A DNA stretch of 25,778 bases from a virus (Duplodnaviria; Heunggongvirae; Uroviricota; Caudoviricetes), in the IMG/VR virus record IMGVR_UViG_2718218136_000006; one strand, written 5' to 3'. Shown here piece by piece: positions 3,860 to 25,778 of this stretch (positions are counted from its first letter, which is position 1; every line of letters begins with the position of its first letter). The notes beneath the pieces are model-generated. The model saw only the letters and a program-made list of their open reading frames with translations, was not told the origin of the DNA and did not search any database. The position numbers and the translations under genes were made by a program.

Positions 3860-3863
3860 TATA

Positions 3864-4856: not shown

Positions 4857-4931
<75 letters not shown>

Positions 4932-4934
4932 ATA

Positions 4935-5010
<76 letters not shown>

Positions 5011-7963: not shown

Positions 7964-8087
7964 TTAAGTAATTTCAGAGGTATCTATCACTTTCTCAGGA
8001 GTTGTAGATAACAATTCTTTCATACGCTGATCTTCGGGAGCACGAGAAGACAGGTGTTCTAAAAACTCACGCCATTGACGCTTTGCA
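7964..8087 (-). pseudogene. orphaned 3' end (37 codons plus stop) of the GHKL ATPase gene, cut off by IS10
   Basis: Reading across the 9-bp duplication, the ATPase frame continues without a stop for 37 codons (QWREFLEHLSSRAPEDQRMKELLSTTPEKVIDTSEIT) to TAA at 7964-7966. Confidence 0.7.
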
Positions 8088-9416
8088 CTGAGAGATCCCC
8101 TCATAATTTCCCCAAAGCGTAACCATGTGTGAATAAATTTTGAGCTAGTAGGGTTGCAGCCACGAGTAAGTCTTCCCTTGTTATTGTGTAGCCAGAATGC
8201 CGCAAAACTTCCATGCCTAAGCGAACTGTTGAGAGTACGTTTCGATTTCTGACTGTGTTAGCCTGGAAGTGCTTGTCCCAACCTTGTTTCTGAGCATGAA
8301 CGCCCGCAAGCCAACATGTTAGTTGAAGCATCAGGGCGATTAGCAGCATGATATCAAAACGCTCTGAGCTGCTCGTTCGGCTATGGCGTAGGCCTAGTCC
8401 GTAGGCAGGACTTTTCAAGTCTCGGAAGGTTTCTTCAATCTGCATTCGCTTCGAATAGATATTAACAAGTTGTTTGGGTGTTCGAATTTCAACAGGTAAG
8501 TTAGTTGCTAGAACCCATGGCTCCTTTGCCGACGCTGAGTAGATTTTAGGTGACGGGTGGTGACAATGAGTCCGTGTCGAGCGCTGATTTTTTCGGCCTT
8601 TAGAGCGAGATTTATACAATAGAATTTGGCATGAGATTGGATTGCTTTTAGTCAGCCTCTTATAGCCTAAAGTCTTTGAGTGACTAGATGACATATCATG
8701 TAAGTTGCTGATAGGTTTCCAGTTTTCCGCTCCTAGGTCTGCATATTGTACTTTTCCTCTTACTCGACTTAACCAGTACCAACCCAGCTTCTCAACGGAT
8801 TTATACCATGGCACTTTAAAGCCAGCATCACTGACAATGAGCGGTGTGGTGTTACTCGGTAGAATGCTCGCAAGGTCGGCTAGAAATTGGTCATGAGCTT
8901 TCTTTGAACATTGCTCTGAAAGCGGGAACGCTTTCTCATAAAGAGTAACAGAACGACCGTGTAGTGCGACTGAAGCTCGCAATACCATAAGTCGTTTTTG
9001 CTCACGAATATCAGACCAGTCAACAAGTACAATGGGCATCGTATTGCCCGAACAGATAAAGCTAGCATGCCAACGGTATACAGCGAGTCGCTCTTTGTGG
9101 AGGTGACGATTACCTAACAATCGGTCGATTCGTTTGATGTTATGTTTTGTTCTCGCTTTGGTTGGCAGGTTACGGCCAAGTTCGGTAAGAGTGAGAGTTT
9201 TACAGTCAAGTAATGCGTGGCAAGCCAACGTTAAGCTGTTGAGTCGTTTTAAGTGTAATTCGGGGCAGAATTGGTAAAGAGAGTCGTGTAAAATATCGAG
9301 TTCGCACATCTTGTTGTCTGATTATTGATTTTTCGCGAAACCATTTGATCATATGACAAGATGTGTATCTACCTTAACTTAATGATTTTGATAAAAATCA
9401 TTAGGGGATTCATCAG
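8088..9416 (-). mobile_element. IS10 copy 1 (1329 bp), flanked by 9-bp direct duplication CGCTTTGCA (8079-8087 and 9417-9425)
   Basis: Ends CTGAGAGATCCCCTCATAATTTCCCC (inside end) and ...TCATTAGGGGATTCATCAG (outside end) recalled as IS10 termini; exact 9-bp flanking repeat read from sequence. Confidence 0.95.
8101..9309 (-). CDS. IS10 transposase, 402 aa
   Basis: ORF track; protein MCELDILHDSLYQFCPELHLKRLNSL... recalled as the IS10/Tn10 transposase. Confidence 0.95.
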   Translation of the reverse strand: MCELDILHDSLYQFCPELHLKRLNSLTLACHALLDCKTLTLTELGRNLPTKARTKHNIKRIDRLLGNRHLHKERLAVYRWHASFICSGNTMPIVLVDWSDIREQKRLMVLRASVALHGRSVTLYEKAFPLSEQCSKKAHDQFLADLASILPSNTTPLIVSDAGFKVPWYKSVEKLGWYWLSRVRGKVQYADLGAENWKPISNLHDMSSSHSKTLGYKRLTKSNPISCQILLYKSRSKGRKNQRSTRTHCHHPSPKIYSASAKEPWVLATNLPVEIRTPKQLVNIYSKRMQIEETFRDLKSPAYGLGLRHSRTSSSERFDIMLLIALMLQLTCWLAGVHAQKQGWDKHFQANTVRNRNVLSTVRLGMEVLRHSGYTITREDLLVAATLLAQNLFTHGYALGKL

Positions 9417-11284
9417 CGCTTTGCATCAGACAGAAGGTCATCCCAAGTTAATGTATACATTTCTTGTTCTCTCAATGTTTTCAGTTTCATATTTAACGTT
9501 GCATTTCTCTTTAAAAAATCATCAGCAACTAGATAACCGGAAACTCGCTTGAATGGACTTCCTGTTGCAGAGTCTAAATAAACTCTGAAAGTATTAACAT
9601 ACTCCTCAAAGCGATTGATGTGATCTTTATCTATTTTCAGCCCTGGCCTCATGAATTCAAGTACAAGCAAATGTTCACCACTTGAAAGAACTAAGTCAAC
9701 CCTTCCTTTAAAGCTTGGATCGTGTTCAATGTCTGATTCTTTTGCTGCTTCTCTAGCGATATGCTGGACATTTTTCTCAATAGCATAAGTCTCCCATTTT
9801 GGAGCTATCAGCCAAGGATTCTTCGCAATATAGTCTCGAACAGCATTTTCTAATTCTTTAGTGCGTATTCTAGTCTCAAGACCACTTATAGTATCAAGCT
9901 TAGCTTTAACTGATTCTGCTGTGTGTAAAGCCTGAATTGTATTTGCTTCGATCAATATCTCAAGCAATTTCGTTTCATCCATATCAGGAACGGAAGCAAC
10001 GCTTCTTATAAGCTCTTTTAGACGCCCTCCCTCCCATGCAGTGAGGATAGAGTTGCCTATATGCCTAAATTGCTCTGCACCGATTTGTTGGATTGATGCA
10101 ATTCGTTTCAAAGCCATTATAACCGTTTTTTTCTCTACACCTAGTTTATCTAGCCTACTTCTGAAATCATCAATTTTACTTTCAATCAGTTTGGTTTTTT
10201 CATCTGCCCGCCGATCTTTCCAGATTTTTAATAATTCGCGAACACGTTTCTGTCCCCACTCTTCTAATTTGGCAAGGTGGTGACTACTCCAATTCAATCT
10301 TTGTCGTTCAGTAGAAATCACATCATCATTAAACTCATCCAAATAATCAGCAATTACAGCCCCTGTCATATATTCAGGACCATTTTGACTTGGCAACCCT
10401 CCAGTCAAGTTAAACATAAACGGCCTTTGTGCTAATTTTTTGTGAGCGTAAATCGAGATACCTTGCAACTCATCATCCTTGATTGTTTCTTTTAAGAAAA
10501 ACACTCTCCATTTTATCTCATAACCATCAACGATTTCTTTTCCATACCCCAAACTGTCAATCTCCGTAAGAGAATCAGGTTTTTCATCTACAGTATAATC
10601 TTTTGGAAAACTATATTCTGCAGTGGCAAGAAAATTTTCGACTGGCATGGGGGTATTATTAATACGAACTAAAAATTCATCGCCGCCAGAATTGATCGCA
10701 AACCTTCTCGCCATAGATGTAGCAAAAGAAGACTCATTTAACAATCTATTTATTTTCAATGACTTAAGTGTTACTGTTGTTCCATGATTTTCTTTTTCTA
10801 ATTCTGAAGGGCCTGTGCGGAAGGTCACATCAATAGCCATGCTTTCAGTTTTAACGTAGTCATCTGACGATCTAATCTTATTTATATCCAAAGTAAAACT
10901 AGTTTTTTCACCTGTTTCTTGGCTAGTAGTACAAATTTCTATAATCTCAGCAATACCAAAACCAGCAAACTTTCCGATACCTTTTCTTCCCATTAAGTCT
11001 CGATTGAATAATTTCGACTTCGCTACAGGATTATCTTTCCTTTTATCAAAACCAACCGTAAGAAATTTCTTTTGACATTCTTCAAATGTCATTCCAATAC
11101 CATTGTCTTTTATAACAATAGTTCTATTTTCATGCGTGGGTAGTGTAATATTAACTTCGGTTGCATCCGCGTCCCAAGCATTAGAAACCATTTCAGCTAT
11201 TGCTGCTGTTGGACTTTGATACATTTGAATACCTAAATGATCAATTATCCTACCATGAAAATTTAGAAATAGTTTATTATCCAT
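9413..11284 (-). CDS. MORC/MutL-like GHKL ATPase (HATPase_c-type N-terminus) with large C-terminal region; truncated to 623 aa by IS10, original about 660 aa
   Basis: Bergerat-fold motifs read directly: EMVSNAWDA (N box), IKDNGIGM (G1), GRKGIGKFAGFG (G2). ATG 11282-11284 overlaps MTase stop by 8 nt. Stop codon 9413-9415 lies inside the IS10 end. Confidence 0.75.
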   Translation of the reverse strand: MDNKLFLNFHGRIIDHLGIQMYQSPTAAIAEMVSNAWDADATEVNITLPTHENRTIVIKDNGIGMTFEECQKKFLTVGFDKRKDNPVAKSKLFNRDLMGRKGIGKFAGFGIAEIIEICTTSQETGEKTSFTLDINKIRSSDDYVKTESMAIDVTFRTGPSELEKENHGTTVTLKSLKINRLLNESSFATSMARRFAINSGGDEFLVRINNTPMPVENFLATAEYSFPKDYTVDEKPDSLTEIDSLGYGKEIVDGYEIKWRVFFLKETIKDDELQGISIYAHKKLAQRPFMFNLTGGLPSQNGPEYMTGAVIADYLDEFNDDVISTERQRLNWSSHHLAKLEEWGQKRVRELLKIWKDRRADEKTKLIESKIDDFRSRLDKLGVEKKTVIMALKRIASIQQIGAEQFRHIGNSILTAWEGGRLKELIRSVASVPDMDETKLLEILIEANTIQALHTAESVKAKLDTISGLETRIRTKELENAVRDYIAKNPWLIAPKWETYAIEKNVQHIAREAAKESDIEHDPSFKGRVDLVLSSGEHLLVLEFMRPGLKIDKDHINRFEEYVNTFRVYLDSATGSPFKRVSGYLVADDFLKRNATLNMKLKTLREQEMYTLTWDDLLSDAKR

Positions 11285-12325
11285 AATCCGCCTCGTTTTT
11301 AGTTATATGTTCTTTGATAAGTTCAGCATGATGCTTAATGAATTCAGGGGGCAATGCATTCCCTATCATCAAAGCAGCCTTGTCTTTACCAAATTGAATA
11401 GGAAAATAGTAATCACTCGGAAAAGTTTGTAATAATGCAGCCTCTCGAAGAGTTATTGCTCTATCTTGTTCAGGATGTAAAAAACGACCTTTTGAAGGAT
11501 TAGTACATCCACTCGTAATAGTTGGAGCTACATCATCCCACCTCATACGACCGTAAACATCGCGAAAACCATTTGGATATCGTTTATGACATGGCAGCCA
11601 ATACTCGTAAGGAAGTTGAGAGCGGCTTCCCCCATCCTTAGGAATAAGACTTATAATTTTTTTAACCTTCTCAGTTCTTCTTTCTAATATATTGTGCAGC
11701 GGATCATTGCTATTTTCAGGTCGAGCCAAATGGCCTATTGCATCGCGCACAGTTATTAAATTACTATTTTTTTGAGCACGAGTAAGCTCTCCGTATCGCG
11801 AAGCAAGTAGTACCATGCGCTTACGTCTTTGTGGCACACCAAATTTACTAGCATCTTCAATTAAAACTGAATTATCATCGATATGATAACCCAATTTCTT
11901 AAGCTCCGAAGTAAACATGTTTATTCGTTCGTCAAATGCCAAAGCTGGTACATTTTCAACCATTACAACTTTTGGAAAAAAGACTTTAACAAAATCTAAA
12001 AAATTAAAAATAAGTTCATTTCTCTCATCAAAGACAGCTACTGTTTTATTTTTTGTTCTTAACGAAGAAAATCCTTGACATGGTGGACAACCTGCCAACA
12101 AATCCAGTTCACCTTGCTGAATTTTTAATTGTTTCATTAATTCATCTGGTGATATATTTTTATATCCCCATTTATTAAGTTAACATCCGGATGGTTGATT
12201 CTATAGGTTTCAGATACAATAGCTTCTTTTTCGATTGCTGATATGACATCAAAGCCAGCCATTTTTAGACCAACTGTCAAACCACCAGCGCCACAAAAAA
12301 GATCAATTGCTTTCATTTTATGCAT
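11277..12325 (-). pseudogene. Dcm-family DNA (cytosine-5) methyltransferase, split by a -1 frameshift in an A5 run (T5 on plus strand at 12157-12161)
   Basis: 62-aa ORF carries motif I (DLFCGAGG) and GDIK; 286-aa ORF carries motif IV (PCQGFS), ENV, and C-terminal GNALPP. Adding one A restores a continuous GDIKNISPDEL...ELDLLAGCPPCQ reading. Confidence 0.8.
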
Positions 12326-12361
12326 TCCATTCCATCATGTATACTATGAATCTAATCGAGA

Positions 12362-12390
12362 ATCATATGAAATTGATAGGCTTTTTACAA
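12362..12390 (-). promoter_or_regulatory. candidate sigma70 promoter for the MTase-ATPase operon
   Basis: On minus strand: TTGTAA (12385-12390), 17-bp spacer, TATGAT (12362-12367), about 40 bp upstream of the MTase start. Confidence 0.35.
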
Positions 12391-12718
12391 TCTTTATCAT
12401 CTATTTTTATTGTCTTATGTAATTTTCTTGGTTATTGGTGGAATGTAATCTCATCTGATATCCTATGTCCTAATAGATAGCAATTCTGTATGAGCTTTTA
12501 TTGCCCTCATCAGACGCTTCCTTTATGAAGTTGTTCCGAGCAATGCAGCATCGCATTTATCACTTCTTTTATGTGGCTTATGTGTCACGGCGTTGTTGCC
12601 ATCAAGGCCAGCGAACATTCCGTGCCTGTCAAACGCCGTGCAAAGCTCGTTAAACGCCCACGTCCGAACTTCGGCAAGGAAGGCATTGGCGCGGTCAACT
12701 CCTGGTAGCCAATCCTGC

Positions 12719-13141
12719 TCACTGCGCCGCCCCCTGAAAATGCCCCTGATAGAATGCCAGCACACGCTGCATAACTTCGCTCTTCCGGCACTCGCGACAG
12801 ATTATGTTCATACGCCTGTCATAGCGGCGTATTTCTCCGTCTGGTAATGACCAGATAAGGTCAGGATCAACCACAACCGTTTTTTTCACCTTTGCCCTGG
12901 ATAGTTTTTTGCGGGCGTTTTTCCAGTCCTTACGAGCCTGTTCAGAGGGAAATAACCCATAGCCAGAGTTGTATACATCGCCACTGGCAACCAACTCTCT
13001 GGCAAGAATGCTCATCAGATATCTTGTCGCACCTGTCTTGGCCTCCAGTTGCCTTAACGTCTCGCGCCCACTCTGGCGTACCAGCTCAACAACCTGCTCC
13101 TTAATTTTTTCACGCTCTTCCTGTGTAAAAACTTTTGCCAT
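12719..13141 (-). CDS. hypothetical protein, about 140 aa
   Basis: ATG 13139-13141 behind GGAGG; ORF track start at 13156 is a TTG. C-terminal end overlaps other open frames (see findings). Confidence 0.45.
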   Translation of the reverse strand: MAKVFTQEEREKIKEQVVELVRQSGRETLRQLEAKTGATRYLMSILARELVASGDVYNSGYGLFPSEQARKDWKNARKKLSRAKVKKTVVVDPDLIWSLPDGEIRRYDRRMNIICRECRKSEVMQRVLAFYQGHFQGAAQ

Positions 13142-13156
13142 AAGCGCCTCCGGCAA

Positions 13157-13870
13157 TCACTTTTCCGACACAATACGACTGGAGGAGTCGACAATCTGTC
13201 GAACAATATCCCGGTACTTGTTCAGCTCCCGCAGCGCGGCGCAGACACGCTCCCACTTCTGGACATGATTTTTCGCCCGGCGCAGCTCACGGTTTGCCAT
13301 GTGCAGCGACTGCACAATGTCCGCCACAGTTTCTGTTTTAATATCTTCCTGTGTTGCATCTTTCTGTACCGGCAACGCAACACCTGCTGGCTGAGGAAAG
13401 GCTTTAAAATCAGTTTCCGTTACCGATGCAGCTTTCGGCTCTGCTGGTAAATTATTGCCCGGTATGCAGTAACGAAATTTACCGTTCTGATTTACGCGAA
13501 TCAGGCGTCCTTTGCTGATTGCCATTGCCAGCGTTGAAGCAATTTTGCGGGATGTGGTACCGAACAGCGTAGCCAGTTCATCCGCCGTTTGTGGTCCGCG
13601 TTGTTCAATCGTCGCGGTTAAATCGCACTCTGAGATTTTCGCTACTGTTGCCGTGGTGGTTTCTTCCGGCAGTTCTGCCTGCATTGGCTGTTCCTGCTGA
13701 ACGTTGTTATCAGCCACACGCCAGGTGTACGCGCTTTTATCAACGAAACCAGCTTTTTTCAGTTCCCATAGTTCGTTCAACACTTCTTCACGACTGATAT
13801 CAAGTCGCGCAGCAAGTTCTATGGATGTGGCTTTTCCCATTGCTTTCAGTGCGTCAAAAACAGTCTCCAT
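13157..13870 (-). CDS. phage protein with two winged-helix-like segments, about 237 aa
   Basis: ATG 13868-13870 with GGGAGG upstream (alternative ATG at 13921 would overlap ydaV); HTH-like stretches [17 protein letters not shown] and [19 protein letters not shown]. Confidence 0.55.
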
Positions 13871-13892
13871 TAAAATTTCCTCCCGATAAAAA

Positions 13893-14639
13893 TTACTTCG
13901 CAGTTCCTGGCTGGACGACATTTGGACGCCAGCTCTCCCAGTTAAAATTCACCCATCGCCCGCCGTTCATGGTCATGCGATCCATAATCCGCTCGCCGAG
14001 CAATGTTTTCATGGCCTCATAGTTCAGGTTTGTCAGCATCCCCACGCTGCGCATCGACGCTGTCCGGCGATCAACAATCTGGTGCAGTACCACCTGCTCG
14101 TTTTTTGTCTCGCGCTGAATGCCAATTTCATCAAGAACCAGCAGATCCACTTCGCACAGTTCCCGCAAAAATTTTTCGCCTGATTGCCCGTCGTCATAGC
14201 TGGCGTGTAGAGCACTCATGACATCAGCCACAGTAACCACAATCACTGTCTGGCCATCTTTCAGCAGACGATTCCCGATAGCCGCCGCCAGATGGTTTTT
14301 TCCGGTACCAGGTTTTCCGCTGAACGCAAAATTTGTACACCCGGTCATCAGTTCATCAGCGATAGATTTCGCCTGGCTCAACGCGTATCGCTGACCGTCG
14401 TTCTGCACCTGGTAATTCACAAACGAGCATTTACGGTGCAACGGCTGGATGCCTGAGCGATTCAGAATTTTTTCCACCCGCAACTGGCGATTCAGGCGGT
14501 TGATCTCCTCGCTACGTTTCTGGCCTTCAGCAAGTTGCCACTCGCGCCACTCCGCTACCGTTCTGAATGGGGCGGTTACATGTGGCGGGGTCAGTCGGCG
14601 GATGCGTTCCAGAACGCCGCCTGTCGCAATATTTTTCAT
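13893..14639 (-). CDS. ydaV: DnaC-like helicase loader (lambda P analogue), 248 aa
   Basis: Walker [10 protein letters not shown] and Walker B LLVLDE read directly; position downstream of the O-like gene. Confidence 0.85.
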
Positions 14640-14645
14640 GGTTCG

Positions 14646-15440
14646 TTACCCCCTGAAGCCTGGCGGGATCGCACTGTCCGGCAACGAGACGGTGTTAACC
14701 TGTCTGAGCAACGTCTCAGGCCTAACACCTTTCGGCGCGAACAAGCCCTGGTATTCATTGGCGATGCTATGTCGAATCACCTGCTCAGGGGTAAAACCCT
14801 GCTGGCGGAATTTTTCCAGTTCCCGTATCGCCCCGTTAGCGCCCTGCTCCGTTCGAATCGGTTTTCGCAATGCCTGCCTGAACCGGACCCACTCATGCCA
14901 GAGTGTTTCCGGCAACCAATCGGGCAACTCAATAGCCTCCGGCTCGAATTTTTTAGATGCTCGTTTTTGGCGAGGGGGATTTAGGGGGAGATCAGTATTT
15001 ATATCTTCCTCTTCCTCTTCCTCTTCCTCTGGTAACGCTTTTTGATCCGTTTGTGTAACGCTGGCAGCGTTACCTTTTCGTTTCAGTTCGCGTATTTTTG
15101 TAACCCTCTCGTTTGTAATCGCCCGTTTTTTAGAGCTTTTTCCGTTATGACGTTCAAAGTTAGGTAGAGAAAGCCCACCGTTATTTTCGACCAGCCATCC
15201 AACCTGAATTAACGCATCAGCAAAACCAGCCATAAAAGTGATGCGATCTATTGCACTTTTTGTAACGCCGCGAGCGTTACACTCTGCGTTACCGTCTATC
15301 ATTTGTTGATCCGCCCATGCCCAGAAGCGAATGACTTTCCCTAATGCGGCATCTGGATCAATATTCAGAATCTCAGCAAGCCTGAATATTTCCGGCTTAT
15401 CCGGCGTAATAACCTCGAGCTTTATCCAGTTTGAAGCCAT
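14646..15440 (-). CDS. ydaU: replication initiation-like protein YdaU (start uncertain: ATG 15438-15440 with AAGGTG, or TTG at 15518)
   Basis: ORF track 14646..15518; sequence and position recalled as Rac YdaU; contains poly-Glu tract. Confidence 0.7.
   Translation of the reverse strand: MASNWIKLEVITPDKPEIFRLAEILNIDPDAALGKVIRFWAWADQQMIDGNAECNARGVTKSAIDRITFMAGFADALIQVGWLVENNGGLSLPNFERHNGKSSKKRAITNERVTKIRELKRKGNAASVTQTDQKALPEEEEEEEEDINTDLPLNPPRQKRASKKFEPEAIELPDWLPETLWHEWVRFRQALRKPIRTEQGANGAIRELEKFRQQGFTPEQVIRHSIANEYQGLFAPKGVRPETLLRQVNTVSLPDSAIPPGFRG
15005..15030. repeat. hexanucleotide repeat (CTTCCT)x4, encoding an 8-residue poly-Glu tract in YdaU
   Basis: Directly read, in frame within ydaU. 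Confidence 0.9.
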
Positions 15441-15518
15441 ATTGTTTTCACCTTGTAACGCTGTAAGCGTTACATTTAACTGATACCGAACAAAACAGTC
15501 CGGCACGATTAATTTCAA

Positions 15519-15941
15519 TCAATGCACTACGACAGAATCGCTAGGAGAACCGCCGCCGCTGAAATGTGCTTTACGGTAAACGGCCTGGACTGCATCATCA
15601 TGCGCATCAATTGCCGTACTCAGTGCATCCTGTGCCGCCAGTAATGCACGGCGTTCCAGGGTATCGAAGATGCAGAGTCGGTGACGCAGCTCGCGAGGAA
15701 GAATTGCCAGAACCGCAGGGATCAGTTTCTGAATTTTTTCCCTTTGCGCATTCGTTTCACCTTTCAACCAACGATGATAGATATTCTGCTGATTGTTCCA
15801 GTCCTTGCCTGGTACCAGGGGCAATTCGCCGCCCCCCTGGCGCAGATATTCTTCAGTAATTGCGTTAGCGACCCACGCCTGCCCTTTTTCGGCTGCCAGG
15901 GCTAACAACACTGATTCGATGTGCTCATGCTTGATTTTCAT
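15519..15941 (-). CDS. ydaT: YdaT, 140 aa (reported toxic partner of YdaS under RacR control)
   Basis: ORF track; start ATG 15939-15941 overlaps ydaS stop (ATGA); sequence recalled as Rac YdaT. Confidence 0.8.
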   Translation of the reverse strand: MKIKHEHIESVLLALAAEKGQAWVANAITEEYLRQGGGELPLVPGKDWNNQQNIYHRWLKGETNAQREKIQKLIPAVLAILPRELRHRLCIFDTLERRALLAAQDALSTAIDAHDDAVQAVYRKAHFSGGGSPSDSVVVH

Positions 15942-16192
15942 GAATCAACTCCCATCAGCTTTTTCGTAGTAGTTTTATTTCTGCCAATAGTTAAAATTGC
16001 ATCGGCAGAAAATAATCCGTTTGATGCATGAGCGATTTTTTCAGCGTAATTTGTTTCGCCGGTATATTCTGTGCGAGGCAATTTTCCGTTATCCATCCAT
16101 TTGTAGATTGCTCTTTGGCTGACACCACAAACGTCGGCCACAACAGAAACGCGAACAGTTTTGATTACATCTTCAAGTGTTTTCTGGTTCAT
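15938..16192 (-). CDS. ydaS: YdaS, Cro-like HTH protein (84 aa from ATG 16190-16192; ORF track extends to 16264)
   Basis: GAGGGTG Shine-Dalgarno before ATG at 16192; HTH segment VADVCGVSQRAIYKW; divergent from racR. Confidence 0.75.
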   Translation of the reverse strand: MNQKTLEDVIKTVRVSVVADVCGVSQRAIYKWMDNGKLPRTEYTGETNYAEKIAHASNGLFSADAILTIGRNKTTTKKLMGVDS

Positions 16193-16216
16193 ATCACCCT
16201 CACAATGTGAACTTTG

Positions 16217-16247
16217 AGTACATGCTATAACAGAACTGACAGTACAT
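16217..16247. promoter_or_regulatory. candidate operator pair in the racR-ydaS divergent control region (two AGTACAT heptamers, 16217-16223 and 16241-16247)
   Basis: Directly read repeats in the 80-bp intergenic region between divergent repressor and cro-like genes. Confidence 0.4.
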
Positions 16248-16271
16248 TCAAGAGCGAATATCATTGAACTT

Positions 16272-16610
16272 ATGGTTCATGAAGATAAAGCGCGTAAAGA
16301 GTTCGCCAGTAGGCTTGCGCTAGCCTGTGAAAACGCTGGTTATGAACAACATGGAAGGCAGGCAGAAATTGCCCGTCGAATGAAATTAACACCAAAAGCG
16401 GTTAGCAAATGGTTTAATGGTGAAACAATTCCTCGCCGAGAGAAATTAAGGGAATTAGCAACACTCATTGGAACAACACCAACCTATCTTTTGGGAGAGG
16501 ATACAGAAGAAAGTGGACAGATACGTTTCTATCAGGAGTTAAATCCAAGACAAAAATCATCATTGACCTTCTGGACGAGCTCCCTGACAGTGAGACAGAT
16601 GAACTTTTAA
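16272..16610 (+). CDS. racR: RacR prophage repressor (XRE-type HTH); 112 aa as read, possibly frameshifted near 16552-16556 with a displaced C-terminal frame to 16689
   Basis: ORF track; HTH GRQAEIARRMKLTPKAVSKWFNG; see findings for the alternative frame. Confidence 0.75.
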   Translation: MVHEDKARKEFASRLALACENAGYEQHGRQAEIARRMKLTPKAVSKWFNGETIPRREKLRELATLIGTTPTYLLGEDTEESGQIRFYQELNPRQKSSLTFWTSSLTVRQMNF

Positions 16611-16765
16611 AAACTCTTGAGGAGAAAAAACAGAAGTACAATGCAATTTACGAAGAGTTAGCACGAAAGAAAAAACAAAAAGCCTCTTAAACCAGCATAA
16701 ATCCGGTAGCGTCCCCCTCCGGGTTTGTGCTTCACTTTATCCCGTCTCATTTTTTTATACATAAA

Positions 16766-16810
16766 ATGTACTTAAAGTACTTTACAATGATGAACACAAA
16801 GTACATTATA
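16766..16810 (+). promoter_or_regulatory. candidate early-left promoter with overlapping operators upstream of ydaG
   Basis: TTTACA (16781-16786), 17-18 bp spacer, CATTAT/ATTATA (16804-16810); palindrome GTACTT-A-AAGTAC (16768-16780) and further AGTACAT copies at 16766-16772 (reverse) and 16800-16806. Confidence 0.35.
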
Positions 16811-16983
16811 TACCTACCAACCCACCCCGCCCCACAGAACGCCGGGCAATACTTCGAGTTACCAGGCAGTGGTCAGGGGTTAAGTAGCCAGCCCGAGGCG
16901 TATGAACATGACGGCAGTTGTTGATTGATACAAAGCGCAGTAGATAAAACGTTCCGCCACCCGGCGTTAAGGGGAGAGATAAG

Positions 16984-17118
16984 ATGGTGCATTACGAAGT
17001 AGTTCAGTATTTGATGGATTGTTGCGATATCACTTACAGCCAAGCTGTACAGGCTCTACGCAGCAACGACTGGGATCTCTGGCAGGCAGAAGTCGCTATA
17101 CGTAGCAACAAGATGTGA
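16984..17118 (+). CDS. ydaG: YdaG, 44 aa (below ORF-track cutoff)
   Basis: ATG 16984 behind GGGGAGAG; translation MVHYEVVQYLMDCCDITYSQAVQALRSNDWDLWQAEVAIRSNKM read by hand. Confidence 0.65.
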   Translation: MVHYEVVQYLMDCCDITYSQAVQALRSNDWDLWQAEVAIRSNKM

Positions 17119-17128
17119 GATTCGCAAA

Positions 17129-17284
17129 ATGCAAAAAATCGACCTCGGCAACAACGAATCCCTGGTGTGCGGCGTGTTCCCCAACCAGGATGGAACGTTC
17201 ACTGCCATGACGTATACCAAAAGCAAAACATTTAAAACCGAAACTGGTGCGCGCCGATGGTTGGAGAAGCACACAGTAAGCTAA
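17129..17284 (+). CDS. ydaF: YdaF, 51 aa (below ORF-track cutoff)
   Basis: ATG 17129; translation MQKIDLGNNESLVCGVFPNQDGTFTAMTYTKSKTFKTETGARRWLEKHTVS read by hand; 3' end overlaps sieB 3' end by 4 bp. Confidence 0.65.
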   Translation: MQKIDLGNNESLVCGVFPNQDGTFTAMTYTKSKTFKTETGARRWLEKHTVS

Positions 17285-17769
17285 CGATTAAAACGTCTAC
17301 TCCTGCTGTTCCAGAATAACTTCATAAAATGGGAGTATTTTTCGGTGACGAGATAATAAGAACAGTTTGCGCTATCACTCTGATGTTGAATGATGCCCTT
17401 CCGTTCTAATTTTTTCATAACCGGGTTACGGCAAGGAGAAGTGATAATAAGATTTCCTGTTTTAAGGAAATCTTTAAATACAGCGATTTCTTTCTCAGAT
17501 AAACGAAGCAATACTCGTTGCTCTGGTAGTAATGAATAATGCTTTTGAATATGTGCTCGCAATCTTGAGAAGGAAATGGCGACCACGAAAGAAAAGGCAA
17601 AAACGATAATCTGAAAGAGCCAAGGTATTTCAGTATAAGCATTGAATGCGACAGTAAACTCTTTCGGTATCAGCCAGAGAGTGAGACCAAAAATGATAAT
17701 CGTATACATAAGTCTTTCGAGTGGCTCGTTAGCAAAAAATTTCAACAATGGAGTAAATACATCCAACAT
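17281..17769 (-). CDS. sieB: SieB superinfection exclusion protein, 162 aa
   Basis: ORF track 17281..17892 trimmed to ATG 17767-17769 (MLDVFTPLL...); two hydrophobic segments; recalled as Rac SieB. Confidence 0.8.
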   Translation of the reverse strand: MLDVFTPLLKFFANEPLERLMYTIIIFGLTLWLIPKEFTVAFNAYTEIPWLFQIIVFAFSFVVAISFSRLRAHIQKHYSLLPEQRVLLRLSEKEIAVFKDFLKTGNLIITSPCRNPVMKKLERKGIIQHQSDSANCSYYLVTEKYSHFMKLFWNSRSRRFNR

Positions 17770-18210
17770 ATCAATAACTCTCAACTGTAAGGGTATTGAA
17801 ATGTTAACACAAGCTCTCGCTGTAGGGGTATAGCCGAGACCACCGAAGCCCGGAGGTGGTGAAATAAAACCGGGCACAACACGAAGGCGCATTTCCGATA
17901 TCCATAAAGAGTCGGTCTTGTCTGTTAAATTTAAATGGTGGGAGTGCGCCTCCGGTTGTAAATAACGACATTGCTGTGTGTAGTCCTGGCGGCATCAGTT
18001 TTTTTCTTGAAGTTCGGCTGATGTCCGCCCTTTTTAAAGTGAATTTTGTGATGCGGTGAATGCGGCTAAGCGCACGTGGCACAGTTAAAAGTCATGTTAG
18101 TCCTTATTGGTTTGGGTGGGAAAGCCGATTGTAATTGTTAACTGGTTGCAGTCACCTGGAGGCACCAGGCACCGCATCAACAAAGTTCATTTGTAAAAAT
18201 GGAGATAATT

Positions 18211-18432
18211 ATGATTGCACATCACTTCGGAACTGATGAAATACCACGTCAGTGTGTGACTCCTGGCGATTATGTTCTTCATGAAGGCCGGACATATATT
18301 GCCTCGGCAAACAATATTAAAAAGCGAAAACTATATATTCGTAACCTGACCACAAAAACATGCATTACTGACCGCATGATTAAAGTCTTCCTCGGTCGTG
18401 ATGGTTTACCTGTAAAGGCGGAGTCATGGTGA
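18211..18432 (+). CDS. kilR: KilR (FtsZ-targeting killing protein), 73 aa
   Basis: ORF track 18199..18432 trimmed to ATG 18211 behind GGAGA; sequence [16 protein letters not shown]... recalled as KilR. Confidence 0.85.
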
Positions 18433-18602
18433 TGACTAAGAAAATAAAATGTGCTTACCACCTTTGCAAAAAAGACGTTGAAGAAAGCAAAGCTATTGAA
18501 AGAATGCTTCACTTCATGCACGGGATTTTATCAAAAGACGAACCGAGAAAATATTGCAGTGAAGCTTGTGCCGAAAAAGACCAGATGGCACATGAACTTT
18601 AA
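18432..18602 (+). CDS. ydaE: YdaE, 56 aa, Cys-rich small protein (below ORF-track cutoff)
   Basis: ATG 18432 (alternative ATG 18426) after AAGGCGGAG; translation [18 protein letters not shown]...KYCSEACAEKDQMAHEL read by hand. Confidence 0.65.
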   Translation: MTKKIKCAYHLCKKDVEESKAIERMLHFMHGILSKDEPRKYCSEACAEKDQMAHEL

Positions 18603-18676
18603 TTAATTGACTATTCGAAACTGAATTTATGCCAGAAATGGCAGGTATTCGCTCAACCTTAATTAAGGAGAAAAAC

Positions 18677-18952
18677 ATGATTACCAATTATGAAGCCACT
18701 GTTGTAACTACCGATGACATTGTTCACGAGGTGAATCTGGAAGGAAAGCGCATTGGCTACGTAATTAAAACAGAAAATAAAGAAACCCCATTCACTGTGG
18801 TTGATATCGATGGTCCATCAGGCAACGTAAAAACACTTGATGAAGGTGTCAAAAAAATGTGCCTGGTGCATATCGGAAAGAATCTGCCCACAGAAAAAAA
18901 AGCCGAATTTCTGGCAACTCTAATTGCAATGAAATTAAAAGGTGAAATCTGA
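18677..18952 (+). CDS. racC: RacC, 91 aa
   Basis: ORF track 18629..18952 trimmed to ATG 18677 behind AAGGAG; sequence MITNYEATVVTTDDIVHEV... recalled as RacC. Confidence 0.85.
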   Translation: MITNYEATVVTTDDIVHEVNLEGKRIGYVIKTENKETPFTVVDIDGPSGNVKTLDEGVKKMCLVHIGKNLPTEKKAEFLATLIAMKLKGEI

Positions 18953-19053
18953 AAGAAATAGCCTGCGTATGACGCAGGCTATGAACAGTGTGTATCCGGC
19001 AAGATCATTCACTGAACAAAACGAATTTTAATCTGAGTTGAGGTTAAAAAACA

Positions 19054-21654
19054 ATGAGCACAAAACCACTCTTCCTGTTACGGAAAGCGAAAAAATCATC
19101 CGGTGAACCTGACGTCGTCCTGTGGGCAAGCAACGATTTTGAATCGACCTGTGCCACTCTGGACTACCTGATCGTTAAGTCAGGTAAAAAACTGAGCAGC
19201 TATTTTAAAGCTGTTGCCACGAATTTTCCTGTCGTTAATGACCTGCCCGCTGAAGGTGAGATCGATTTTACCTGGAGTGAACGCTATCAACTCAGCAAAG
19301 ACTCCATGACATGGGAACTAAAACCGGGAGCAGCACCAGACAACGCTCACTATCAAGGCAATACCAACGTCAACGGCGAAGACATGACTGAGATTGAGGA
19401 GAATATGCTACTCCCAATTTCTGGCCAGGAACTGCCCATTCGTTGGCTTGCTCAACACGGCAGCGAAAAACCGGTAACGCACGTTTCACGCGACGGACTC
19501 CAGGCATTACACATTGCTCGGGCTGAAGAACTACCGGCTGTTACTGCCCTGGCTGTTTCCCACAAAACCAGCCTGCTCGACCCGCTGGAAATTCGCGAAC
19601 TCCACAAACTGGTTCGTGACACTGACAAAGTTTTCCCTAATCCTGGTAATTCAAACCTGGGACTGATAACTGCTTTTTTCGAAGCATACCTGAACGCTGA
19701 CTACACCGATCGAGGACTGCTGACAAAAGAGTGGATGAAGGGTAATCGTGTTTCACACATCACTCGCACGGCTTCCGGTGCTAATGCTGGCGGCGGAAAC
19801 CTCACCGATCGCGGCGAAGGTTTCGTACACGATCTGACGTCACTGGCGCGCGACGTAGCCACTGGCGTACTGGCCCGTTCAATGGATCTGGACATCTATA
19901 ACCTTCATCCGGCACACGCTAAACGCATTGAGGAAATTATCGCTGAAAATAAACCGCCCTTTTCTGTTTTCCGCGACAAATTCATCACCATGCCTGGCGG
20001 GCTGGATTATTCCCGCGCCATCGTGGTTGCGTCCGTAAAAGAAGCACCAATTGGGATCGAGGTCATCCCCGCGCACGTCACTGAATATCTGAACAAAGTA
20101 CTGACTGAAACCGATCATGCCAACCCTGATCCGGAAATCGTGGATATTGCCTGCGGTCGCTCCTCTGCCCCGATGCCGCAGCGAGTAACAGAAGAAGGAA
20201 AACAGGATGATGAAGAAAAACCGCAACCATCTGGAACAACGGCAGTTGAACAGGGAGAGGCTGAAACAATGGAACAGGACGCAACTGAACATCATCAGGA
20301 CACGCAGCCGCTGGATGCTCAGTCACAGGTAAATTCTGTTGATGCGAAATATCAGGAACTGCGGGCAGAACTCCATGAAGCCCGGAAAAACATTCCATCA
20401 AAAAATCCTGTCGATGCCGATAAATTGCTTGCTGCATCACGTGGTGAATTTGTTGACGGAATTAGCGACCCGAACGATCCGAAATGGGTAAAGGGGATCC
20501 AGACTCGCGATTGTGTGTACCAGAACCAGCCAGAAACGGAAAAAACCAGCCCGGATATGAATCAACCTGAGCCAGTAGTGCAACAGGAACCGGAAATAGC
20601 CTGCAATGCCTGCGGCCAGACTGGCGGGGATAACTGCCCTGACTGTGGTGCGGTGATGGGCGACGCAACATACCAGGAAACATTCGATGAAGAGAGTCAG
20701 GTTGAAGCTAAGGAAAATGATCCGGAGGAAATGGAAGGCGCTGAACATCCGCACAATGAGAATGCTGGCAGCGATCCGCATCGCGATTGCAGTGATGAAA
20801 CTGGCGAAGTCGCAGATCCCGTAATCGTAGAAGACATAGAGCCAGGTATTTATTACGGAATTTCGAATGAGAATTACCACGCGGGTCCCGGTATCAGTAA
20901 GTCTCAGCTCGATGACATTGCTGATACTCCGGCACTATATTTGTGGCGTAAAAATGCCCCCGTGGACACCACAAAGACAAAAACGCTCGATTTAGGAACT
21001 GCTTTCCACTGCCGGGTACTTGAACAGGAAGAATTCAGTAACCGCTTTATCGTAGCACCTGAATTTAACCGCCGTACAAACGCCGGAAAAGAAGAAGAGA
21101 AAGCGTTTCTGATGGAATGCGCAAGCACAGGAAAAACGGTTATCACTGCGGAAGAAGGCCGGAAAATTGAACTCATGTATCAAAGCGTTATGGCTTTGCC
21201 GCTGGGGCAATGGCTTGTTGAAAGCGCCGGACACGCTGAATCATCAATTTACTGGGAAGATCCTGAAACAGGAATTTTGTGTCGGTGCCGTCCGGACAAA
21301 ATTATCCCTGAATTTCACTGGATCATGGACGTGAAAACTACGGCGGATATTCAACGATTCAAAACCGCTTATTACGACTACCGCTATCACGTTCAGGATG
21401 CATTCTACAGTGACGGTTATGAAGCACAGTTTGGAGTGCAGCCAACTTTCGTTTTTCTGGTTGCCAGCACAACTATTGAATGCGGACGTTATCCGGTTGA
21501 AATTTTCATGATGGGCGAAGAAGCAAAACTGGCAGGTCAACAGGAATATCACCGCAATCTGCGAACCCTGTCTGACTGCCTGAATACCGATGAATGGCCA
21601 GCTATTAAGACATTATCACTGCCCCGCTGGGCTAAGGAATATGCAAATGACTAA
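19054..21654 (+). CDS. recE: RecE exonuclease VIII, 866 aa, intact
   Basis: ORF track; length and sequence recalled as Rac RecE; 3' end overlaps recT start. Confidence 0.95.
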
Positions 21655-22456
21655 GCAACCACCAATCGCAAAAGCCGATCTGCAAAAAACTCAGGGAAAC
21701 CGTGCACCAGCAGCAGTTAAAAATAGCGACGTGATTAGTTTTATTAACCAGCCATCAATGAAAGAGCAACTGGCAGCAGCTCTTCCACGCCATATGACGG
21801 CTGAACGTATGATCCGTATCGCCACCACAGAAATTCGTAAAGTTCCGGCGTTAGGAAACTGTGACACTATGAGTTTTGTCAGTGCGATCGTACAGTGTTC
21901 ACAGCTCGGACTTGAGCCAGGTAGCGCCCTCGGTCATGCATATTTACTGCCTTTTGGTAATAAAAACGAAAAGAGCGGTAAAAAGAACGTTCAGCTAATC
22001 ATTGGCTATCGCGGCATGATTGATCTGGCTCGCCGTTCTGGTCAAATCGCCAGCCTGTCAGCCCGTGTTGTCCGTGAAGGTGACGAGTTTAGCTTCGAAT
22101 TTGGCCTTGATGAAAAGTTAATACACCGCCCGGGAGAAAACGAAGATGCCCCGGTTACCCACGTCTATGCTGTCGCAAGACTGAAAGACGGAGGTACTCA
22201 GTTTGAAGTTATGACGCGCAAACAGATTGAGCTGGTGCGCAGCCTGAGTAAAGCTGGTAATAACGGGCCGTGGGTAACTCACTGGGAAGAAATGGCAAAG
22301 AAAACGGCTATTCGTCGCCTGTTCAAATATCTGCCCGTATCAATTGAGATCCAGCGTGCAGTATCAATGGATGAAAAGGAACCACTGACAATCGATCCTG
22401 CAGATTCCTCTGTATTAACCGGGGAATACAGTGTAATCGATAATTCAGAGGAATAA
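21647..22456 (+). CDS. recT: RecT single-strand annealing protein, 269 aa
   Basis: ORF track 21590..22456 trimmed to ATG 21647 ([13 protein letters not shown]...), overlapping the last codons of recE. Confidence 0.95.
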
Positions 22457-22512
22457 TTCAGCCTGGCGGTGTAATGCACCGCCAACTTGAAATATTTTTT
22501 ATGAGAAAAATT

Positions 22513-22707
22513 ATGAGATATGACAATGTTAAACCATGTCCATTTTGTGGTTGTCCATCAGTAACGGTGAAAGTCATTTCAGGATATTACCGAGCGAAGT
22601 GTAACGGATGCGAATCCCGAACCGGTTATGGTGGAAGTGAAAGAGAAGCACTCGAAAGATGGAATAAACGAACCACTGGAAATAATAACGGAGGTGTTCA
22701 TGTATAA
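22513..22707 (+). CDS. ralR: RalR (Lar) restriction-alleviation protein, 64 aa
   Basis: ORF track 22474..22707 trimmed to ATG 22513 (MRYDNVKPCPFCGC...); Cys-rich zinc-ribbon-like pattern. Confidence 0.8.
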   Translation: MRYDNVKPCPFCGCPSVTVKVISGYYRAKCNGCESRTGYGGSEREALERWNKRTTGNNNGGVHV

Positions 22708-22888
22708 AATTACCGCTACTATTGAAAAGGAAGGTGGCACTCCTACTAACTGGACAAGATATTCAAAATCTAAACTAACGAAATCAGAATGCGAAAAAAT
22801 GCTCTCAGGTAAAAAAGAAGCAGGCGTTTCCAGAGAGCAGAAAGTAAAACTGATAAATTTTAATTGCGAGAAACTTCAGTCCTCGTGA
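22700..22888 (+). CDS. ydaC: YdaC, 62 aa
   Basis: ATG 22700 behind GGAGG, overlapping ralR end by 8 nt; ORF track 22628..22888. Confidence 0.65.
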   Translation: MYKITATIEKEGGTPTNWTRYSKSKLTKSECEKMLSGKKEAGVSREQKVKLINFNCEKLQSS

Positions 22889-22920
22889 ATTGCATTGTAT
22901 TCAAATTAAAACTTCATAGC

Positions 22921-22936
22921 TGATTATTAATAATCA
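22921..22936. repeat. perfect 16-bp palindrome TGATTATTAATAATCA upstream of xisR
   Basis: Directly read; lies 50 bp upstream of the excisionase start. Confidence 0.7.
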
Positions 22937-22987
22937 ACATCGGGCGTCAATTTCAGTCTAACATTGGCGCCTGCCAGAGGTGATGCG

Positions 22988-23203
22988 ATGGCACAAGTAA
23001 TCTTTAATGAAGAGTGGATGGTTGAATACGGCCTGATGCTTCGCACTGGTCTGGGGGCCAGACAAATTGAAGCATACCGCCAGAACTGTTGGGTGGAGGG
23101 CTTCCACTTCAAACGAGTATCTCCTTTAGGTAAGCCAGACAGCAAACGAGGGATTATCTGGTACAACTATCCAAAGATAAATCAGTTTATCAAAGACTCA
23201 TGA
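22988..23203 (+). CDS. xisR: XisR excisionase, 71 aa
   Basis: ORF track 22964..23203 (TTG) trimmed to ATG 22988 behind GAGGTG; stop overlaps intR start region. Confidence 0.8.
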
Positions 23204-23204
23204 T

Positions 23205-23640
23205 ATGTCTAAATTACCAACAGGTGTCGAGATTAGAGGTAGATACATTCGCATCTGGTTCATGTTTCGAGGAAAACGATGTCGGGAAACATTAAAAGGC
23301 TGGGAGATTACAAACAGTAATATTAAAAAGGCCGGAAATTTAAGAGCGCTGATAGTTCATGAAATAAACTCCGGTGAATTTGAGTATTTAAGACGTTTTC
23401 CCCAGTCCAGCACTGGGGCAAAAATGGTGACAACGAGAGTCATAAAAACGTTCGGAGAGCTTTGTGATATCTGGACAAAAATTAAAGAGACAGAGTTAAC
23501 AACAAACACAATGAAGAAAACGAAATCACAATTAAAAACACTCAGAATAATAATTTGTGAAAGTACCCTGATATCACATATTCGTTATAGCGATATCTTA
23601 AACTACCGGAATGAACTGCTGCATGGAGAAACGCTTTACC
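23205..23640 (+). pseudogene. intR: intR integrase, 5' fragment (145 codons), interrupted by IS10
   Basis: ATG 23205; frame runs into IS10 at 23641 and terminates after 11 IS-encoded codons; arm-binding-type N-terminus. Confidence 0.9.
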
Positions 23641-24969
23641 CTGAGAGATCCCCTCATAATTTCCCCAAAGCGTAACCATGTGTGAATAAATTTTGAGCTA
23701 GTAGGGTTGCAGCCACGAGTAAGTCTTCCCTTGTTATTGTGTAGCCAGAATGCCGCAAAACTTCCATGCCTAAGCGAACTGTTGAGAGTACGTTTCGATT
23801 TCTGACTGTGTTAGCCTGGAAGTGCTTGTCCCAACCTTGTTTCTGAGCATGAACGCCCGCAAGCCAACATGTTAGTTGAAGCATCAGGGCGATTAGCAGC
23901 ATGATATCAAAACGCTCTGAGCTGCTCGTTCGGCTATGGCGTAGGCCTAGTCCGTAGGCAGGACTTTTCAAGTCTCGGAAGGTTTCTTCAATCTGCATTC
24001 GCTTCGAATAGATATTAACAAGTTGTTTGGGTGTTCGAATTTCAACAGGTAAGTTAGTTGCTAGAACCCATGGCTCCTTTGCCGACGCTGAGTAGATTTT
24101 AGGTGACGGGTGGTGACAATGAGTCCGTGTCGAGCGCTGATTTTTTCGGCCTTTAGAGCGAGATTTATACAATAGAATTTGGCATGAGATTGGATTGCTT
24201 TTAGTCAGCCTCTTATAGCCTAAAGTCTTTGAGTGACTAGATGACATATCATGTAAGTTGCTGATAGGTTTCCAGTTTTCCGCTCCTAGGTCTGCATATT
24301 GTACTTTTCCTCTTACTCGACTTAACCAGTACCAACCCAGCTTCTCAACGGATTTATACCATGGCACTTTAAAGCCAGCATCACTGACAATGAGCGGTGT
24401 GGTGTTACTCGGTAGAATGCTCGCAAGGTCGGCTAGAAATTGGTCATGAGCTTTCTTTGAACATTGCTCTGAAAGCGGGAACGCTTTCTCATAAAGAGTA
24501 ACAGAACGACCGTGTAGTGCGACTGAAGCTCGCAATACCATAAGTCGTTTTTGCTCACGAATATCAGACCAGTCAACAAGTACAATGGGCATCGTATTGC
24601 CCGAACAGATAAAGCTAGCATGCCAACGGTATACAGCGAGTCGCTCTTTGTGGAGGTGACGATTACCTAACAATCGGTCGATTCGTTTGATGTTATGTTT
24701 TGTTCTCGCTTTGGTTGGCAGGTTACGGCCAAGTTCGGTAAGAGTGAGAGTTTTACAGTCAAGTAATGCGTGGCAAGCCAACGTTAAGCTGTTGAGTCGT
24801 TTTAAGTGTAATTCGGGGCAGAATTGGTAAAGAGAGTCGTGTAAAATATCGAGTTCGCACATCTTGTTGTCTGATTATTGATTTTTCGCGAAACCATTTG
24901 ATCATATGACAAGATGTGTATCTACCTTAACTTAATGATTTTGATAAAAATCATTAGGGGATTCATCAG
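23641..24969 (-). mobile_element. IS10 copy 2 (1329 bp), flanked by 9-bp direct duplication CGCTTTACC (23632-23640 and 24970-24978)
   Basis: Same termini as copy 1; 9-bp flanking repeat read from sequence; same orientation as copy 1. Confidence 0.95.
23654..24862 (-). CDS. IS10 transposase, 402 aa
   Basis: ORF track; protein identical to the copy-1 transposase. Confidence 0.95.
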   Translation of the reverse strand: MCELDILHDSLYQFCPELHLKRLNSLTLACHALLDCKTLTLTELGRNLPTKARTKHNIKRIDRLLGNRHLHKERLAVYRWHASFICSGNTMPIVLVDWSDIREQKRLMVLRASVALHGRSVTLYEKAFPLSEQCSKKAHDQFLADLASILPSNTTPLIVSDAGFKVPWYKSVEKLGWYWLSRVRGKVQYADLGAENWKPISNLHDMSSSHSKTLGYKRLTKSNPISCQILLYKSRSKGRKNQRSTRTHCHHPSPKIYSASAKEPWVLATNLPVEIRTPKQLVNIYSKRMQIEETFRDLKSPAYGLGLRHSRTSSSERFDIMLLIALMLQLTCWLAGVHAQKQGWDKHFQANTVRNRNVLSTVRLGMEVLRHSGYTITREDLLVAATLLAQNLFTHGYALGKL

Positions 24970-25778
24970 CGCTTTACCTGGATAATCCAAGATCCAACAA
25001 AAAAGGAAGAACCGTGCGCACAGTTGATAACTATATCGCCCTGCTCTGTTCGCTGTTACGTTTTGCGTATCAGTCGGGATTTATATCAACCAAACCATTT
25101 GAAGGAGTAAAAAAATTACAGCGAAACAGAATAAAGCCTGATCCGTTATCTAAAACAGAATTCAATGCATTAATGGAAAGTGAAAAAGGACAGAGCCAGA
25201 ACATGTGGAAATTTGCAGTTTACTCAGGACTTCGTCACGGGGAACTGGCAGCTCTGGCGTGGGAGGATGTGGATCTCGAAAAGGGAATAGTGAATGTCAG
25301 AAGAAACCTGACGATACTTGATATGTTCGGTCCCCCAAAAACAAATGCCGGGATCCGGACAGTAACACTACTGCAGCCTGCTCTTGAAGCACTGAAGGAG
25401 CAATACAAACTGACCGGGCATCATCGCAAAAGCGAAATCACCTTTTATCATCGGGAGTACGGCAGAACCGAAAAGCAAAAACTGCATTTTGTTTTCATGC
25501 CCAGGGTGTGTAACGGAAAACAAAAACCTTATTACTCGGTAAGCAGTTTGGGGGCAAGGTGGAATGCAGCAGTAAAACGTGCTGGTATTCGCCGCCGTAA
25601 TCCGTACCATACGCGGCATACTTTTGCCTGCTGGCTGTTGACGGCAGGAGCGAACCCGGCATTTATAGCCAGCCAAATGGGGCATGAAACTGCGCAGATG
25701 GTGTATGAAATTTACGGTATGTGGATTGATGACATGAACGACGAACAGATAGCCATGTTGAATGCGCGGTTATCATAG
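24970..25778 (+). pseudogene. intR: intR integrase, 3' fragment with tyrosine-recombinase catalytic region
   Basis: Frame resumes in register after the duplicated 9 bp (CTG at 24978-24980); catalytic-region motifs HTRHTFACWLL and ...EIYGMW; stop at 25776-25778. Confidence 0.9.

Follow-up and report, generated by a model that had tools for sequence, protein, structure and literature searches.

We identified two copies of the insertion sequence IS10 in a window of 25,778 nucleotides (the whole stretch of DNA that was analysed) which, by its gene content and order, is a Rac-type lambdoid defective prophage at ttcA of E. coli. For comparison an IS-free relative was used, a locus in NZ_CM166347.1 (L001), where a Rac-type prophage lies between a sitA fragment, ynaK and trkG on one side and intR-ttcA on the other. 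According to the annotation of NZ_CM166347.1, the genes follow the Rac-type order intR-xisR-ralR-recT-recE-kilR-sieB-regulators-ydaT-ydaV ... trkG, adjoining ttcA, and a match to the RalA sRNA is present in the window. The features of the window on which the analysis is based are the following.

7964..8087, minus strand: displaced 3' remnant of the ATPase gene, consisting of the last 37 codons and the stop (transferred from the L001 coding sequence at 11965-13947).
8079..8087, no strand: left target duplication of copy 1, CGCTTTGCA.
8088..9416, minus strand: IS10 copy 1, 1329 bp, with its inside end at 8088 and its outside end at 9416; same sequence as copy 2.
8101..9309, minus strand: transposase gene of copy 1, 402 aa, IS10-Right type (PF01609 DDE_Tnp_1, E=1.5e-24).
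9302..9371, plus strand: RNA-OUT antisense RNA of copy 1 (RF00240, 98.8 bits, full length), transcribed rightwards, towards the outside end.
9413..11284, minus strand: GHKL-ATPase gene truncated by copy 1, 623 of 660 aa, a prefix common with the 660-aa protein of L001.
9417..9425, no strand: right target duplication of copy 1, CGCTTTGCA.
9417..23640, no strand: interval between the copies, 14,224 bp, colinear with L001 except for two 1-nt homopolymer gaps.
Genes of the interval: those for the ATPase, an m5C methyltransferase, DUF977 and DUF1627, ydaV, a gene in the ydaU position, ydaT and two HTH regulators.
Further genes of the interval: ydaF, sieB, kilR, ydaE, recE, recT, ralR/RalA, xisR and the 5' third of intR.
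23205..23675, plus strand: 5' part of intR, codons 1-144, then 11 codons from IS10 and a stop (by comparison with L001, whose IntR has 411 aa).
23632..23640, no strand: left target duplication of copy 2, CGCTTTACC.
23641..24969, minus strand: IS10 copy 2, 1329 bp, orientation as copy 1.
23654..24862, minus strand: transposase gene of copy 2, 402-aa ORF.
24855..24924, plus strand: RNA-OUT of copy 2 (RF00240, 98.8 bits), pointing towards the 3' part of intR and ttcA.
24970..24978, no strand: right target duplication of copy 2, CGCTTTACC.
24970..25778, plus strand: 3' two-thirds of intR, 100% identical to L001 26297-27105 and continuing past the end of the window.

A repeat search of the window returned one long direct repeat with an offset of 15,553 bp. 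When 8088-9416 was compared base by base with 23641-24969, all 1329 of 1329 positions were identical with zero mismatches, and the identity stopped at the element ends plus the CGCTTT that is common to the flanking 9-mers. An earlier note on this DNA had described two apparently identical IS10 copies of 1329 bp, encoding identical transposases in the same direction and separated by 14.2 kb. The pairwise comparison that it proposed revealed no differences, the spacing was measured as 14,224 bp and its coordinates proved to be exact. Both copies are in direct orientation, each with a 402-aa ORF on the minus strand (8101-9309 and 23654-24862), and run from the inside end (CTGAGAGATCCCC...) to the outside end (...GGGGATTCATCAG) when read rightwards; the leftmost sequence of each copy is CTGAGAGATCCCCTCATAATTTC, the IS10 inside end, and the rightmost is ...AATCATTAGGGGATTCATCAG, the outside end. 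Because the copies are identical, they probably derive from one common source or one copy is the parent of the other. Three 1-nt homopolymer deletions are private to the window and absent from all relatives, which suggests that the window comes from a long-read assembly, and consensus polishing of such an assembly could be partly responsible for the perfect identity of the two copies. The frameshifts that homopolymer gaps introduce in the methyltransferase gene and in the regulator gene in the racR position are probably errors.

Both copies display the features of IS10 (IS4 family), namely its size, its ends, a DDE transposase, 9-bp duplications, RNA-OUT and GATC sites. One full-length match to the Rfam model of RNA-OUT (RF00240) was obtained per copy, with 98.8 bits compared to a gathering score of 41, and in each copy it overlaps the start of the transposase gene on the opposite strand. 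With positions numbered from the outside end, the element contains exactly two GATC sites, at nt 67 and nt 1320. They correspond to the Dam (GATC) sites of the pIN region and the inside end, whose regulatory role in IS10 is established. The terminal inverted repeats are imperfect (outside CTGATGAATCCCCTAATGATTTT, inside CTGAGAGATCCCCTCATAATTTC) and the ends are as in both IS10 copies of R100. In the NCBI annotation, IS10 is labelled 'ISVsa5 family'.

The coding sequence of the transposase is that of the L002 IS10, annotated as WP_001339197.1, which is the same protein as in IS10-Right of R100. With IS10-Right of Tn10 the element further shares its length of 1329 bp, the 402-aa size of this protein, the terminal sequences, RNA-OUT, the two GATC sites and the formation of 9-bp duplications at GCT-containing targets. 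It differs from IS10-Right of Tn10 on R100 (the copy adjoining tetD) at five of 1329 nt, and from IS10-Left of R100 at 12 positions. Of the five positions at which it departs from IS10-Right, four (nt 24, 25, 27 and 47 from the outside end) have the IS10-Left bases, and the element is therefore classified, on the basis of this nucleotide comparison, as an L/R hybrid in which an IS10-Right transposase is combined with an IS10-Left-type outside end. The fifth difference, at nt 203, is synonymous. IS10 L/R hybrids have already been described (PMC10044804). In the plasmid collection, the most frequent variant is this one or one that differs from it by a single base, and such copies are common on enterobacterial plasmids. 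The intact ORF and ends are consistent with transposition activity of both copies.

Each copy is flanked by a perfect and different 9-bp duplication (CGCTTTGCA for copy 1 versus CGCTTTACC for copy 2), as the earlier note had reported; the chance of a 9-bp match at a fixed position is approximately 4e-6 (4^-9). In the IS-free relative L001, CGCTTTGCA and CGCTTTACC are each present once, followed by the sequence that is found after the right-hand 9-mer in the window. Taking out both copies together with one 9-mer each yields a Rac-type prophage at ttcA, and three 1-nt homopolymer gaps are the sole differences between this sequence and L001. A megablast search of 5,426 complete E. coli genomes identified eleven genomes that match window 1-23640 at approximately 100% identity in two pieces and have neither IS10 copy. 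Transposition of IS10 is a cut-and-paste process that produces 9-bp duplications (PMC10044804). Because the empty sites are single-copy in IS-free Rac prophages, we conclude that the pair very probably arose when one IS10 variant inserted twice, by separate cut-and-paste events, into resident Rac-type prophage DNA, and none of the evidence encountered contradicts this. Each event would have used and duplicated a consensus-like 9-bp site.

Alternatively, the 16.9-kb segment 8088-24969, bounded by direct IS10 copies, could have inserted as one unit, as a composite transposon. Its outer termini (inside end at 8088 and outside end at 24969) constitute the end pair of a single IS10, on which the transposase could in principle act, but the outer 9-mers differ (CGCTTTGCA versus CGCTTTACC) and a matching pair flanks each IS10 instead. 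IS-free Rac prophages at this chromosomal position, present in at least eleven genomes, are colinear with the interior as well as with both flanks, which argues that the interval did not move as one transposon, and in other samples one junction is found in surroundings that imply the absence of the other. Neither of the two hallmarks of a composite transposon was found, as there is no shared outer duplication and the interior is not cargo that is absent from the empty locus. The comparison with the empty sites thus refutes a composite transposon, to which we assign a negligible probability, and upholds the proposal of the earlier note that the insertions were independent. The arrangement has in common with Tn10 that two IS10 copies bracket several kilobases. 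In Tn10 on R100, however, the copies are inverted and unlike each other, as the earlier note had pointed out for their orientation, whereas the copies in the window are direct and identical, each has its own duplication, and the DNA between them is resident prophage and not cargo.

The published target consensus of IS10, as quoted in PMC10044804 from Bender & Kleckner (1992), is GCTNAGC. When scored against NGCTNAGCN, the target in the ATPase gene (site 1) matches at 5/6, which places it in the top 0.36% of IS-free window positions, and the target in intR (site 2) matches at 4/6, a score reached or exceeded by 3.1% of IS-free window positions. Both targets contain a perfect GCT half-site of the consensus as quoted, which 2.9% of positions have, in line with the suggestion that targets starting with CGCTTT reflect the preference for this half-site. 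Strong hotspots of Tn10/IS10 depend on the sequence flanking the consensus, again according to Bender & Kleckner (1992) as cited in PMC10044804. Sequence comparison indicates that both 9-mers have been hit independently in other strains, which is the sole mildly notable point of the present analysis. In SRR13808302, IS10 is located at the exact ATPase 9-mer, in opposite orientation and in a different Rac variant. In TUM12357 (NZ_CP134370.1), a canonical IS10-Right is located at the exact intR 9-mer CGCTTTACC, also in opposite orientation. Two further candidates were dismissed. The IS10 of FDAARGOS_1370 is IS10-Left-type, lies upstream of Rac within a phage coat gene and is unrelated to either site, and the match in ETEC1738 that seems to run on into the flank is due to another prophage, located at icd, whose integrase gene contains a similar target.

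Neither junction of the window, in the same orientation, was found in the 5,426 complete RefSeq E. coli genomes, which makes this window the only place where the pair of copies is seen. An exact-protein lookup with the 156-aa IntR-IS10 fusion identified contig NMHC01000061.1 of GCA_002514385.1, a related draft genome. This contig carries the same junction in the same orientation, has a length of 22.5 kb and stops 158 nt into IS10. The 623-aa ATPase was not found in assembly GCA_002514385.1. For this reason, and because an IS10 located 14.2 kb to the left would be expected to interrupt a short-read contig, the ATPase site is probably empty in this assembly, the intR insertion being present without the ATPase insertion, in which case the pair would be built stepwise. 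We infer this order of insertions from the length of NMHC01000061.1. The junction of the 623-aa ATPase is present on contigs of ERR1880019 and SRR31994478, in the same orientation and with the same TTTTTA(T) outside-end variant; these contigs end 25-30 nt into IS10, and the samples may or may not carry the intR insertion as well. Given that both sites are hit recurrently, an insertion common to two strains is no strict proof of common ancestry.

The junctions in other samples also bear on the question of whether one or both IS10 copies could be a misplaced repeat, introduced during assembly. Such an artefact is conceivable in an error-prone long-read assembly of the kind suggested by the three private homopolymer deletions, but misplacement would not produce a perfect 9-bp duplication around each copy that is single in the empty site, and each junction is independently present in contigs from other samples. 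Given the perfect duplications and the independent junctions, an assembly artefact was rejected as highly improbable, and we regard the copies as two genuine, separate insertions.

Of these insertions, one strips the last 37 codons from the GHKL-ATPase gene, which is paired with the m5C methyltransferase gene, and the other splits intR. The ATPase has an N-terminal GHKL domain (Pfam HATPase_c_3) and a PADLOC "REase_II" match (1.2e-52), and its gene, which is restriction-enzyme-like, is located directly downstream of the m5C methyltransferase gene. The TGA stop of the 623-aa protein is supplied by the terminal CTGA of IS10. Copy 2 splits intR after codon 144 of 411, about one third into the gene, and because intR is broken the prophage is probably unable to excise by its own integrase. 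RNA-OUT, and hence pOUT, is directed rightward in both copies, against the ATPase gene at copy 1 (antisense) and with the 3' part of intR and ttcA at copy 2 (sense); read-through from pOUT may affect these neighbouring genes. The IS10 pair accounts for the pseudogene appearance of intR and the ATPase gene.

The recurrence of IS10 at exactly these 9-mers, in several lineages and in both orientations, might be attributed to selection and not just to target preference. Selection would favour the loss of intR, which would lock the prophage in, and of the restriction-like ATPase. Each site has been hit independently at least twice, ETEC1738 contains another IS10 abutting a truncated integrase gene in a different prophage, and site 2 is only a 4/6 match to the consensus as quoted in PMC10044804, a level attained or surpassed by 3.1% of positions, although the dependence of strong hotspots on flanking sequence, cited from Bender & Kleckner (1992) in the same paper, speaks for target preference. 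Gene loss could moreover be obtained by insertion anywhere in the gene, without re-use of one 9-mer, and copy 1 costs only 37 C-terminal residues. We consider selection unlikely. We are similarly doubtful about a broader scenario in which both 9-mers are repeatedly favoured in nature, so that IS10 recurrently locks Rac-type prophages through intR and disarms the restriction-like ATPase, with the direct pair as an intermediate towards prophage erosion. The pair of separate insertions is ordinary IS10 activity in a defective prophage, of a kind that is already known.

Two identical direct repeats of 1.3 kb are a standard substrate for homologous recombination. RecA-dependent recombination between the two copies would remove 15,553 bp, so that a single IS10 remains, preceded by CGCTTTGCA and followed by CGCTTTACC. 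The lost segment would run from codon 623 of the ATPase gene through the methyltransferase, replication and immunity genes, kilR, recE, recT, ralR and xisR to codon 144 of intR. The content of this deletion was largely foreseen in the earlier note, as the interval with the methyltransferase, the immunity and replication region and recE/recT would indeed be removed, but only the 5' third of intR would be lost (codon 144 of 411) and not its 5' half. Likewise, the predicted loss of the methyltransferase-ATPase module applies to most of the ATPase gene, but its last 37 codons, left of the IS, would survive. That the copies recombine and 15,553 bp are lost is plausible; it is a prediction, the window holding the precursor state, and the predicted product was not found for this lineage in the 5,426 complete E. 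coli genomes.

In S. Typhi, direct IS10R copies, each with its own repeats, have been proposed to collapse to one hybrid IS10R by homologous recombination (PMC10446203), and IS10-mediated deletions have been documented in E. coli K-12 derivatives (PMC4444293). The S. Typhi proposal (PMC10446203) and the window share, as proposed precursor, a region between direct IS10R copies with their own repeats. They differ in that the window shows this precursor, whereas the deletion product is not seen in the lineage of the window. In TUM12357, a single IS10 joins trkG (at about 1731 of the window) to the 3' part of intR without a matching duplication, and the Rac interior is missing. Such an arrangement could have resulted either from an adjacent deletion promoted by IS10 or from recombination of two IS10 copies. 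The Rac remnant of TUM12357 shares with the window an IS10 that abuts the same intR 9-mer, CGCTTTACC, and its flanks are 98.9-99.7% identical to the window. In contrast to the window, its IS10 has the opposite orientation and a canonical IS10-Right outside end, and the left breakpoint is in trkG instead of the ATPase gene. The IS10 event in TUM12357 is independent of the insertions in the window.

The practical value of these findings is small and knowledge of IS10 is unchanged, while the two junctions are usable as lineage markers for strain typing. For the prophage, the direct pair implies that one recombination step can remove a segment with recET, the immunity and replication genes, the kilR/ydaT/ralR toxin genes and the methyltransferase-ATPase module. 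For IS10, the re-use of both 9-mers in unrelated strains provides a natural illustration of its hotspot specificity.

The outside ends of the two IS10 copies in the window, one inserted in the GHKL-ATPase gene and the other in intR, carry the bases of IS10-Left at four positions:

9370-9416: outside end of the copy in the ATPase gene, IS10-Left bases at nt 24, 25, 27 and 47
24923-24969: outside end of the copy in intR, IS10-Left bases at nt 24, 25, 27 and 47

Apart from these four outside nucleotides, the remainder of the element is that of IS10-Right, and the window IS10 is therefore a Left/Right hybrid. The 9-bp target sites duplicated by the two copies have also been used by independent IS10 insertions. 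In strain TUM12357 (NZ_CP134370.1), an IS10 at positions 1694-3022 of the compared region adjoins the identical intR 9-mer, CGCTTTACC (window 24970). This element is in the opposite orientation relative to the window copy, its outside end is that of canonical IS10-Right, and its far end is joined to trkG (window about 1731), the entire Rac interior being gone. Likewise, Logan contig 50 of SRR13808302 (11873-11896) has, at the exact ATPase 9-mer, CGCTTTGCA (window 9417), an IS10 that inserted independently and faces the other way, and its host is a different Rac variant. Because CTGA starts both ends of IS10, the 623-aa ATPase product is the same for either orientation of the insertion.

The interrupted ATPase gene belongs to a two-gene module:

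9413-12318, minus strand: m5C methyltransferase gene followed by the GHKL-ATPase protein gene, identified by Pfam and PADLOC matches

The methyltransferase matches PF00145 and the PADLOC model MTase_II (4.5e-81), and the ATPase protein matches PF13589 and PADLOC Type II restriction-enzyme models (1.2e-52). The pair probably serves restriction-modification or defence; the slot of Rac that it occupies is probably a variable one, since different genes are found at this position in other Rac variants.

Three homopolymer runs in the window are one base shorter than in every relative examined, including short-read contigs with the same IS10 insertions:

4314-4318: 1-base deletion, G5 to G4
12157-12162: 1-base deletion, T6 to T5
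16552-16557: 1-base deletion, A6 to A5

Two of the three cause frameshifts in genes, shortening the m5C methyltransferase from 346 aa to a 286-aa ORF and the HTH regulator at the racR position from 139 to 112 aa. The deletions are probably long-read assembly errors, and the genes not true pseudogenes.

Additional IS10 elements were found in other E. coli strains. In ETEC1738 (NZ_CP122768.1, 3077-5242 of the compared region), a different prophage lies next to icd; its integrase gene is truncated and adjoins an IS10 with an IS10-Right transposase, a second case of a prophage integrase gene cut by IS10. The chromosome of ET12567 (NZ_CP045457.1) has at least 40 places matching IS10. According to its record this strain was built from GM2929, and we take it to be dam-deficient. 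IS10 is de-repressed without Dam methylation, which would fit the many matches.

At the left edge, the window (1-23) adjoins a sitA pseudogene fragment beside a truncated ynaK (3405-4025 in the IS-free relative region of NZ_CM166347.1). The prophage remnant appears to end at position 24, as the match to more distant Rac relatives starts only there. Two further loci encode RNAs:

4857-5010, minus strand: prophage-borne tRNA-Gly(TCC) and tRNA-Thr(TGT) genes
22706-22884, minus strand: RalA antitoxin sRNA (Rfam RF02694, 220.6 bits), opposite ralR

The two tRNA genes have the Q-like antiterminator region on one side and the lysis genes on the other. The predicted deletion between the direct IS10 copies would remove RalA/ralR, a type I toxin-antitoxin pair.
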